Position numbers: made by a program | Part shown: positions 1 through 6,538 of the stretch, in pieces | Position numbering within the stretch: the stretch's first letter is position 1 | How the letters are laid out: every line of letters begins with the position of its first letter | Source of the DNA: a bacterium | GTDB lineage: Bacteria; Zhuqueibacterota; Zhuqueibacteria; Oceanimicrobiales; Oceanimicrobiaceae | Direction: 5' to 3' | DNA: 6,538 nt | Assembly (NCBI GenBank): GCA_046757525.1 | Contig: JBHHYI010000229.1 | Coordinates: forward strand, 1-6,538

Positions 1-3000
1 TTGCTTACCTGGACACCCTGGTGATTTTTAACAGCGACGTGGACAACCCGCAGGTGCCGGTCATTCTCATAGGAAGCGGAAGCAATCAGTTCCCGCCGCG
101 CATCACCTCGGCGGACACGGTCACGGCCACCGAAGACGTGTTCTTCGAATACACGGCCACGGCTATCGATAGCGACGGCACGCTGCCGCAGTTCTTGTTT
201 CGTGACTTGCCCGTCTGGTTGGCAACCAAACGCGTGGCTGCCGACAACAACGTGGTGGAAGGCACGCCGCGAGAAGGCGACCGCGACACTTCGTTTGTGG
301 TGGTGGCAACCGACGGTCTGTTCTCAGACACCCTTTCCGTTTACGTGCGGGTGTTGCCAGTAAACGACCCGCCCGTCATCAGCCCGATTGCAGATCAGTT
401 TGGCGTGGAACAGACGCTACTGACTTTCAACCTGAGCGCATTCGATCCCGAAGATAGCACGTTGGCGTTTACAGCCCAGGGGCTGCCTGCGGGTGCGATT
501 TTCACGGACAACGGCGACAAGACCGCCAGCTTTACCTGGACGCCGCCTGTGGGGTCGGCTGGCGTTTACGCCGTGACTTTTATCGTCACCGAGGTGGTTG
601 CCCAAAACGCTCTGAGCGACACCGCCACGGTGCAAATAACCATCAAAGAAAATCTGCCCGACCTGGTGGCCTCGCTGCAGATTACCGACTCCAACATTTC
701 CTTGAACCAGACCCGCCTGCTTACTGGAACCGTGCGCGATGAAGTGGCGCCGGTGGACACTTCCTTTCGCCTGACCTTTTTTTACGATGGCAATTTTGTC
801 AAAGACACGGTGATTACCAAAATGAGCGTGGGTCAGGAGGTGTCCTTCCCCTACCTGGCCCTGTTTGACCGCCTGGGCACTCACGAAATAACCTTTGCGG
901 TGGACTGGAATAAGGAAATAGCTGAAAGCAATGAGGGCAACAACAACATCTTTCTCAGACTGCAAGTTACCAAAGGAGATTTGGTCGTGCGGCCCAACCC
1001 GTTTACACCCAACAACGACGGCTTCAACGATCGGGTACGTTTTGATTTTGGTAGACTGGTGTTAAATCAACCGCGCCTGAAAATCTTCGATTTTAACGGC
1101 GTGTTGTTGCGAACCATTGAGCAGCCGCAGAATCGTCAATTCCTCTGGGATGGATTGGACGCCAAAGGGCACGAGCAAAAACCCGGTGTTTACCTGTACA
1201 TCCTGACAGATCGCCACAACAGAATCAGCAGCGGGTACGTGGTTTTAGCACGGTAGAGGAGTCGGACTGTAAGCTTTTTGATCACACTATCTGCGACAGT
1301 TAAAATGAACAAGAACAGCAAATCCTTAGACATACTTCTATTCGTTAGCGCATCTATTTTTGCCACTTCTGGTTTGCGGGCGCAAAATATCATCAACGCA
1401 AATCCGGCGGAATCGTACGATTTCAGAGCTGCGTTTGTCAACCCGGCTATCATTTCCTTTCAAAATGCGCACGTCGCAGCCGGGGGCAAACTGTTCCACC
1501 TGGGCTTTGTGGACAACCAGTCCAACCCGTTTCGCCAGGGCTATGTGAGCTTGTCCCTGCCGTTTGGCATCAACAACCAAACCGGCTTCGGAATTCAGGC
1601 GCAGTATTTCAATACGCCGCTTTTCAGTCAAAGCAATATCAGTCTGAATATTGCGAAAAGAATCCATCGAATTTATTCGTTTGGCCTTAAATTAAACGTT
1701 TTTTCCAAGTCATTTAACCGGGACAATTTCGATCTGGTGGACCCCGACGATCCGGTGTTTGCCAACGGCACCTCGGTGTGGAGCACCACTTTAGGGGCCG
1801 GGGTTGCCGTGATTCCGCACCCGAATTTAAGCCTGGGCATCGGCGTCGATCACATCAACCGCGCCAACGTTTCCCTCATCGGCGACGATGTCACGCAGCC
1901 GATCAAGGCCTATTTCGGGGCTTTTCTGGACCTGAGCGTGTTTCAAGCCTCGGTGAGCTTCATTTACGAAGACGGCAGATTCTTGCCTAAAACGTCGGTG
2001 GGCTCGTCCGTAAGCAAGCTGGGGTTCTTCCGGCTGGGCTACAACAATCGCTCCGCCGAATTCGAAGGTCAGCTCCACTTGACCGGACCTCTCAGTTTGA
2101 ATTATAGTTACGACTACACGCTTTTCGACAATCAGGGCAATGGTCAGGGTTCGCACCAGTTTACGCTTATTCACGACTTCGATGCTAAACGGGAGTTGCC
2201 CGACTTCGAGATTCCACAAGAATTGATTTTGAATTTTGAGCCTCCCAAAAAGGCGATCGATATCGAATCCAGATTTTATGTCTATCCTACGATAGAAAAA
2301 CTGGAGATCATGGAGAAGAAGTTAACGAGGGTCGTCAACCCGAACGTGAGCAAAGAGGCCCTGGCCCAGCTCTCCCCGCTTGACGTGGGGGTCCTCGACT
2401 CCAGTGAAACTGAAAGCTACTTACCCTTCAAAAAGGACACGGTGGACACATCTCTCCTTCCAGCCGTCTTGGAAGCCAACATGTCCAAAGAATACAAGAA
2501 CTTTGTCAAAGGATTTGCAGACAAACTCAATGAAAGACACGATGTTAAAGCTAACATAATTGCTCCTAAGCAGTCAATTCTCCGGGCCGCTGCTCTCAAA
2601 AAACATCTTCAACCGGATTCGTCACAGGGAGCGAAAAAGGTTCCAATCGTACAGCCCGTTTTTTACTCTACCCAGGACAGCTTGTTGGCCAGTGAGAAAT
2701 TAGGTCCACACAGTTTACGTTCCAGGGAGACTCTGACAACTCTGTCGCAAACCCACACTACATTCAAGATCATGCCCGTTTTTCTGCAACGCACCATTGC
2801 TTCCTGGAGCTTGATCATTGAGAACAAAGGGGGCCAGGAAATCAAGCGGTTCGACGGCACCGGGATGCCACCAGGGGAGCTGGCCTGGGACTGGAAAGAC
2901 GCCGCTGGTAAATTGGTTGAACCGGGGGTTTATTACTACTATCTGGCGTGCAAAGACCACAGCGACAATTCCTACGTCTTAGAAAAGAAGCCTATTTACA

Positions 3001-6000: not shown

Positions 6001-6538
6001 TTTCCGGAGGTAGTCAACCGGTTTATGGAAAAGGCCCCCAGGGATTTGTCCTCTGTGGTCGACTTTCAAATAGGCGGCCGCAGTTTTCAGATGTATTTAA
6101 CTTGCAAGGTCAAGCTTTACGAAGTCAGAGTTTGTTTGCTGGAAGGCAACGCGTCCACCTATTTAATAGATCGCGGGTTTAAAGAAAAGAGCAGCTACCT
6201 GAGAACAGGGTCGGTCAGCCGCAGGGCCAATGGGCAGATCCTTGCTTTCGGCACCACGCGCCGCGCGGCCTCCAACCGCAAAACCACGCAGTTCTACCAG
6301 GTCTTTCTCTCCTGGTGGGAAAGCGTGAAACCAGAAGTGCAGCAGTTTTTATAGGCAGGGTGCTTTTAGGAAACGCTCCTTTTGAGCGGACTGACAGTTG
6401 CTTTTCTTTGAGCACACAGGCAGTCGTCCTGAGTAGTCCCGACCGCTCTTTGGTCGGGACGTCGTGTCGAAGGGCAACGCCCGTCACCCCTCGATACGGT
6501 CACCTCAACAGCGGTGACCTACTCGGGATGACTCGCAA

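Follow-up and report, generated by a model that had tools for sequence, protein, structure and literature searches.

Core-less type IX secretion gene sets in phylum KSB1 and an ExbB/ExbD operon linked to one class of PorP carrier

As a rule in one bacterial phylum, SprA, PorU, PorV and dozens to hundreds of type-A cargoes make up a type IX secretion system (T9SS) gene set without detectable GldK/L/M/N. We use KSB1 as the phylum name, taken from the titles of the nearest named loci. At the gene level this core-less T9SS is real and phylum-wide, and it has been partly anticipated in print. The window, the whole stretch of 6,538 nucleotides analysed here from one genome of this phylum, carries a PorP gene next to ExbB and ExbD genes. 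Tentatively, with a confidence somewhat short of even, we read it as an accessory operon in which an ExbB/ExbD motor works its own type-B adhesin and PorP carrier. This analysis adds controlled counts for the phylum, a closed-genome counter-example and the split of PorP into classes. In the current view, the GldLM motor and the GldKN track are required for release from SprA, and T9SS arose from gliding. Veith 2013/2017 are said to treat Rhodothermus. In the literature searched, neither the PorP-ExbB-ExbD operon nor a T9SS in KSB1 was found described; supplementary gene tables may already show the missing core.

The window operon and its relatives

The window is the entire contig C229 and holds six genes, all on the plus strand (Table 1). 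The genome-wide survey's note had placed these genes, and those of a second locus with the same parts on contig C3, correctly. It had also called the dark proteins of the two loci paralogous, in agreement with their 40% identity over 120 residues (E 3e-29). The genes it named were all found, but the operon extends further: contig C281 opens with the same repeat of about 180 bp that ends C229 (reverse strand) and carries two genes that continue the operon in relatives, one for a TPR lipoprotein and the other, the last gene, for an exported protein of 234 aa.

Table 1. Features of the window
Feature	Positions	Strand	Remark
CHU_C cargo fragment	3-1256	+	3' end of surface protein; contig end cuts 5' part
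PorP_SprF carrier	1278-3098	+	Pfam and structure model
MotA_ExbB channel subunit	3064-4383	+	Pfam; divergent ExbB/TolQ type
ExbD 1	4385-4786	+	Pfam; membrane Asp retained
ExbD 2	4886-5281	+	Pfam; membrane Asp retained
Dark transducer-shaped protein	5296-6354	+	352 aa; no family match
Dispersed genomic repeat, about 180 bp	6361-6538	.	At contig end

A Pfam search of the cargo fragment identified He_PIG/cadherin-like, CARDB and type-B CTD domains; the CTD scored 33 bits against CHU_C (cut-off 27) and 30.7 bits against TIGR04131, below the cut-off of 35. Orthologues of this cargo are about 1100 aa long, with FG-GAP and Ig repeats (orthologue at L012). The genome contains only two PorP_SprF genes, at C229 and C3, and the two weakest (most divergent) of its ten MotA/ExbB matches adjoin them. 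Its type-B-motif proteins both lie within the two operons.

The divergent ExbB carries a C-terminal Ig-like (Big_1-like) domain, which is fused in 50/65 ExbB and would be cytoplasmic by the usual ExbB topology. The channel motif is kept in 64/65 ExbB and 129/134 ExbD; we take the ExbB Thr and the ExbD Asp to serve in the proton path. In a tree of 82 of 84 rows, from which MotA was left out, the window-type ExbB formed its own long-branch clade (support 100/100), distinct from the ExbB of the Agl-Glt-like, Tol and core Ton groups.

The usual gene order, TPR, cargo, porP, exbB, exbD, exbD, dark gene, TPR lipoprotein and last gene, is conserved across KSB1, Calditrichota and Balneolales/Rhodothermales, and the full operon is also present in the cultured Balneolaceae bacterium ANBcel3 (L069). 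Across 80 loci we counted ExbB in 62, ExbD in 67, TPR in 70, the last gene in 68 and PorP in 50; as operons are shared among kin, locus counts are not independent. Outside Gemmatimonadota PorP was present in 49/60 loci, and contig ends cut many of the rest. In 7/80 named loci and in L129 the dark gene came next after PorP, and no exbB/exbD separated the two. In Gemmatimonadota the motor genes occurred without PorP in 19/20 loci, as a six-gene motor unit alone. Gemmatimonadota genomes with the motor gave no PorP profile match (0/5, in a search that had no positive control), and type-A CTDs were found in 0/3 of such genomes.

Within the phylum, the dark gene occurs in 64/167 genomes and in 44 of the 105 near-complete ones, leaving 61/105 without it; the patchy distribution reported before was confirmed, the count of 63 was not. 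Its product matched no Pfam family at E<=1 and no NCBIfam model at E<=0.01. The TonB-like shape ascribed to it was seen again, but neither Pfam nor NCBIfam gave a TonB_C match. In the structure model, a helix (10-33) and a low-confidence spacer (about 100-198) precede a confident C-terminal alpha/beta meander domain (200-349), modelled as helix-meander-helix; the fold lists do not exclude families. Foldseek with this model returned nothing at E<=0.001, and the top match in structure comparison (Z 7.1, rmsd 4.2, 120 aligned) was not clear. Atlas searches yielded leads for both the dark domain and the last gene, none of which reached 0.9. The family is small, with 279 representatives at E<=0.001, and ranges over KSB1, Calditrichota, Balneolales/Rhodothermales, Gemmatimonadota and one Melioribacteraceae bin. 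The nearest named loci, titled KSB1, share 49-51% identity.

T9SS parts and the missing core

All tallies over 167 genomes include two unpublished genomes, G158 and G162. SprA_N was over its cut-off in 162/167 genomes, as the note had stated, and in 104 of the 105 near-complete ones; PorU was found in 155/167. The genome of the window encodes SprA on C200 (2068 aa, SprA_N 145 bits) and the PorU sortase (864 bits, cut-off 420), both of which had been claimed. Its type-A cargoes are indeed many, although 88/90 CTD matches exceeded the cut-off and not the 71 given before. For the PorV family 9/11 matches were over the cut-off; the C207 PorV reached 297 bits with PorV_fam (cut-off 90) and 224 with the PorV equivalog, under 250.

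The core profiles behaved differently. GldM_1st, GldN and GldK were over cut-off in 0/167 genomes each (for GldK at most ten candidates were scored per genome), and five genomes gave no GldK candidate of any sort; GldL_N was over cut-off in 1/167, G088. The P. distasonis porPKLMN record served as positive control for the GldN (192 bits) and GldM (212 bits) profiles, and the GldL_N tally stands without a Bacteroidia control. When true PorK, PorL, PorM and PorN were searched against the genome of the window by tblastn, the best E values were 0.08, 1.4, 7.6 and 5.9, respectively. No FGE-type GldK relative was found there (best E 0.77 and 0.08), and a topology screen for GldL/GldM-shaped neighbours gave three pairs, none motor-like by reading. 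No conserved motor genes were seen near sprA (20 loci clustered and read by eye) or porU (13 loci, likewise), and any exbB lay within 10 kb of sprA in only 1/14 genomes. Profiles, tblastn and topology screen agree with the note that no GldK/L/M/N can be found in this genome. The GldM profile is over its cut-off in none of the 167, as it had said, although G088 has a PorM-like start (below). Two candidates were rejected: the best of the weak GldM_1st matches was a protein of soluble type, anchored at its C-terminus and with no adjoining gldL, and an FGE protein with 134 GldK bits sits among secreted proteins without a porKLMN cluster.

The core went undetected in 166/167 genomes. G088, a bin 73% complete, has a cluster of type-B cargo, broken porP, porK-like, short porL-like and cut porM-like genes. 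Its porK-like gene scored 231 bits, and 196 bits in the GldK scan of the phylum, where the next best had 136; its PorL scored 28.5 bits with GldL_N. The PorM-like N-terminus aligned with P. distasonis PorM at a score of 61 (0/1000 shuffles) and had no GldM_1st match at E<=0.01; a real PorM start missed by the profile sets a limit on the absence claim. The GC content of the cluster is 52.8%, against 50.8% for the sprA contig of the bin, and the cluster may be native, transferred or a contaminant. The genes after porP, both in P. distasonis and in G088, are porKLM(N), at the place that exbB-exbD-exbD-dark takes in window-type operons.

The closed genome G085 (one contig, 100% complete) encodes SprA, two PorU and no fewer than 150 type-A CTDs, and in it we found no PorP, dark gene, C167 module (described below), GldL, GldM or GldN. 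Five near-complete genomes without the dark gene have 46, 86, 145, at least 150 and at least 150 type-A matches. Outside the phylum, the named genomes with a dark gene (two Balneolaceae, Rhodothermales, Melioribacteraceae, Longimicrobiales) had SprA in 5/5 and GldL in 0/5; two Rhodothermia tested gave 60 and 41 type-A matches. Melioribacter and Ignavibacterium have been stated to possess SprA, PorV and Plug as their only T9SS proteins (PMC11705866). The T9SS outer-membrane set of the phylum may run without GldKLMN. Of the working T9SS without PorLM and PorKN that had been proposed, the gene set was confirmed, while its activity is inferred; the claim that it overturns a universal PorKLMN core has to be softened, being partly anticipated in that paper. 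With SprA, PorU, at least 150 cargoes and no core in one closed genome, it becomes testable what ejects the carrier and whether energy is needed.

The PorP carrier and known systems

The window PorP scored 40.6 bits against PF11751 (cut-off 22.3) and 51 bits against TIGR03519, below the cut-off of 90.6. It consists of a signal peptide, a FadL/PorV-type barrel (mature 1-267) and a periplasmic extension of about 300 aa (model pLDDT 84). In the predicted model the barrel resembles PorV 6h3i_F (Z 25.6, rmsd 2.4, 247 aligned) and the extension the PorU CTD (Z 12.1, rmsd 2.9, 98 aligned); the extension is a CTD-like Ig fold with a degenerate OmpA-like domain inserted. This OmpA-like remnant, recovered by hhalign in motor-linked PorP (91.7%, E 7.7e-7), has an 11-residue deletion. 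Motor-linked PorP kept the Arg in 46/51 and the G-x-D motif in 0/51, positions which we take to be those of the peptidoglycan-binding motif, so that this class appears to have lost wall binding. No conserved cysteine was found among the 52 motor-linked PorP listed, and the window class is without a C-terminal cysteine for a GldK disulfide of the kind in SprF and PorG.

The window operon is tied to this one PorP class. The comparison covered the 150 PorP places listed out of 202 (six rows from the unpublished G158/G162). In this set, all 93 PorP of 550-730 aa were in dark-gene genomes and 81/93 within 12 kb of the dark gene; near the dark gene lay 0/29 longer and 0/28 shorter ones, i.e., 0/57 outside this class. 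Seven long PorP without a motor were examined; four end in two OmpA domains, the second of which has the full motif, and three in a caspase-like domain.

Compared with the T9SS of Bacteroidota (SprA-PorV-GldKLMN in F. johnsoniae, Sov-PorKLMN in P. gingivalis), the phylum shares SprA, PorU, PorV and type-A cargo but differs in having no detected GldL/M motor and GldK/N ring in 166/167 genomes; Ignavibacterium and Melioribacter have a similar partial set (PMC11705866). A type-B cargo gene beside a PorP-family barrel is also known from SprB-SprF and PG1035-PorP-PorE, as are wall-anchored and apparently unanchored classes. In contrast to both, a periplasmic extension of 300 aa is fused to the window carrier, which lacks a cysteine tether; the neighbouring motor is of the ExbB/ExbD type and not GldLM as for SprB-SprF, and the motor-less class has OmpA fused to PorP and not on a separate PorE. 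SprF and PorG are disulfide-tied to GldK, and the Bacteroidota motor moves the carrier SprF as its handle (PMC12635249). Gorasia 2022 postulated mobile type-B adhesins without a wall anchor and split wall-anchored from mobile carriers (PMC9143113).

With Ton and Tol (ExbB-ExbD-TonB, TolQ-TolR-TolA) the window shares ExbB/ExbD over cut-off, the channel residues and a single-pass partner with a long spacer, but its ExbB is a separate long-branch clade with an Ig domain, the partner has no TonB_C match, and the set is PorP-linked. The Agl-Glt machinery of Myxococcus and the orphan core (AglRQS, GltC/D/E/G) likewise combine one ExbB-like and two ExbD-like proteins with a TonB-shaped transducer and a TPR lipoprotein; the window set, however, has no GltG or AgmX/PglI match. 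Identity with Agl-Glt was rejected, since the window ExbB falls outside the Agl-Glt-like clade and the dark protein has no NCBIfam match, while a C54 protein scores 94 over 40. True members of that clade are located elsewhere in this genome, on C32 and C54.

Possible roles of the operon

The link to one PorP class without tether and peptidoglycan motif suggests that the motor most likely serves to move or release the adhesin-carrier of its own operon, as a PorP without these would be free to be moved. The adhesin would exit via SprA and stay held by its type-B CTD on its own PorP barrel. The ExbB-ExbD1-ExbD2 stator would use the proton gradient to drive the membrane-anchored dark protein, whose spacer could span the periplasm and whose C-terminal domain would act on the periplasmic extension of PorP, probably via the TPR lipoprotein and the last periplasmic protein. 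The motor might thus pull, drag or reset the carrier-adhesin, like GldLM and the GldK track for SprF-SprB, and type-A export would be powered by something other than the window operon. For an adhesin machine driven by ExbBD the operon offers a concrete candidate, which is present in a cultured Balneolaceae strain.

A third locus, C167, had been overlooked when the two loci were named the best local candidates. It encodes a CTD-like cargo, a PorV/Q-like barrel with an extension, ExbB, two ExbD, a 196-aa anchored protein and TPR; its ExbB type is a clade separate from the window type. The C167 module is present in 60/167 genomes; both modules occur in 18, either in 106 and neither in 61.

The survey's note had proposed that the two loci replace PorLM for all T9SS cargo. 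The presence of SprA without GldL in the named dark-gene lineages and the porP-then-motor order, which parallels porPKLMN, fit this proposal, which is nevertheless very improbable. The operon occurs in 44 near-complete genomes against 104 with SprA; among those without it are the five whose type-A cargoes number from 46 to at least 150, and many genomes have neither module. Moreover, exbB is seldom near sprA, and Gemmatimonadota have the motor without PorP or type-A cargo in the genomes tested. G085, with SprA, PorU and its cargoes but without operon, PorP or C167 module, largely refutes the proposal; with the operon in 64/167 genomes only, it is not a general PorLM substitute. A core present all along, as very divergent GldK/L/M/N that escape the profiles, is also highly unlikely. 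The PorM-like start and the low-scoring PorL of G088 and the limited number of GldK candidates scored speak for it, but GldL_N and GldK did pick up the G088 cluster in spite of its divergence (196 bits, next 136), five genomes have no GldK candidate, and the genome of the window has neither an FGE-type GldK relative nor a GldL/GldM-shaped pair.

Cargo-specific release, in which the motor acts once and pulls its own PorP-adhesin from SprA in place of GldLM/PorG, leaving the adhesin static, seems somewhat unlikely, though less so than the foregoing. Release of carrier and substrate from SprA is the step that requires energy (PMC10994853), and two ExbB clades (window type 64/167, C167 type 60/167) are each coupled to cargo and an extended carrier barrel. 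Long PorP with type-B cargo also occurs without a nearby motor, partly in genomes without the dark gene (G091, G101, G026, G037), so type-B export does not in general depend on this motor. The operon could also be a stand-alone Ton/Tol-like envelope machine, for uptake or outer-membrane upkeep or comparable to the orphan Agl-Glt core; adhesin genes would then have joined it with no mechanical coupling. The six-gene unit of Gemmatimonadota, where the motor occurs without PorP, means that its core job need not involve the carrier, and non-gliding orphan Agl-Glt cores of unknown function exist (PMC3169522). We still consider this reading unlikely, because strict linkage to one PorP class and the matching decay of the wall domain are hard to obtain by hitch-hiking.

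More broadly, and doubtfully, FCB bacteria outside Bacteroidia may run a working T9SS without GldKLMN. Ton-type stators may have been recruited at least twice for force on carrier barrels, to PorP in the window type and to a PorV/Q-like barrel in the C167 type. The window type would form an undescribed machine for surface motility or adhesin retraction. GldKLMN would then be a later addition and not the origin of T9SS, contrary to the gliding-first model of Liu 2025.

For type-A export, a shared Ton-type stator and an undetected divergent or unrelated motor are both quite possible, if short of probable; release without a dedicated motor is a little more doubtful. The widest candidate for this power is the housekeeping C100-type ExbB-ExbD-ExbD-TonB operon, the most widespread of all (128/167 at E<=1e-70). 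PorV/Q-family barrel genes and a CTD-type propeller lie two to four genes upstream of it in 7/12 windows examined.

The C100-type operon is, however, missing from whole families (f22 0/5, f9 2/14), and unrelated genes stand between the barrels and the motor. Barrels of the PorV/Q-family type also serve the BAM complex.

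Fused barrels and variants of the dark gene

Three PorP/SprF barrels, the carriers of type-B cargo, end in a caspase-like domain, and type-B cargo adjoins each of these fusions (Table). At four other loci (L122, L123, L125, L126) two OmpA domains are fused to the PorP barrel, an equivalent of PorP-PorE in one protein. The dark gene also varies. At loci of the f15 type (a family label within the phylum) a longer dark protein directly follows PorP, exbB and exbD being absent between them, and some of these proteins carry an additional conserved segment ahead of the membrane helix at the N-terminus. 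In P0075, a protein of 1330 aa, the dark C-terminal domain occurs twice at the C-terminal end, while the N-terminal part is unrelated.

Features of the barrel, dark-gene and motor loci
Feature	Position or handle	Parts
PorP/SprF with C-terminal Peptidase_C14 domain	L124:5254-7821; L132:5409-7865; L133:3329-5614	
PorP then dark protein, f15 type	L023, L024, L028, L029, L032, L080, L082, L129; P0160, P0165, P0169, P0185	
Second cargo-carrier-motor family	G000:C167:343-9189 (L141)	PorV/Q-like barrel as carrier, 699 aa; ExbB, 545 aa, extra N-terminal domain; two ExbD; anchored protein, 196 aa; TPR, 1069 aa
Agl-Glt-like cores (two)	G000:C54:17228-23620; G000:C32:756-9594	

Other motor loci

The second cargo-carrier-motor family was present in 60 of the 167 genomes. 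Agl-Glt-like cores, composed of a TPR protein, a small exported protein, ExbB, two ExbD and a GltG-like protein, were found at 18 loci in 12 of 15 sampled genomes. In Gemmatimonadota (L057-L075) the motor unit ends in a gene that repeats with DxDxSG-like motifs lengthen to about 600 aa. SprA was present in the one Gemmatimonadota genome with a motor unit that was examined; the three genomes of this group with the unit that were searched for type-A CTDs gave no matches.

The phylum's sole porK-porL-porM cluster lies in bin G088 (C585; L092:1-5137), downstream of type-B cargo and a broken porP, and its PorL has only 128 aa. The cluster may be native, transferred or a contaminant.

Neighbourhood of sprA and the window end

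In 16 of 20 loci (L093-L111, G000:C200), sprA is paired divergently with two permease genes, which we take to be LptF/G-like. Window positions 6361-6538 hold a dispersed repeat of about 180 bp, with at least 12 copies in the genome at 82-93%, frequently at contig ends.
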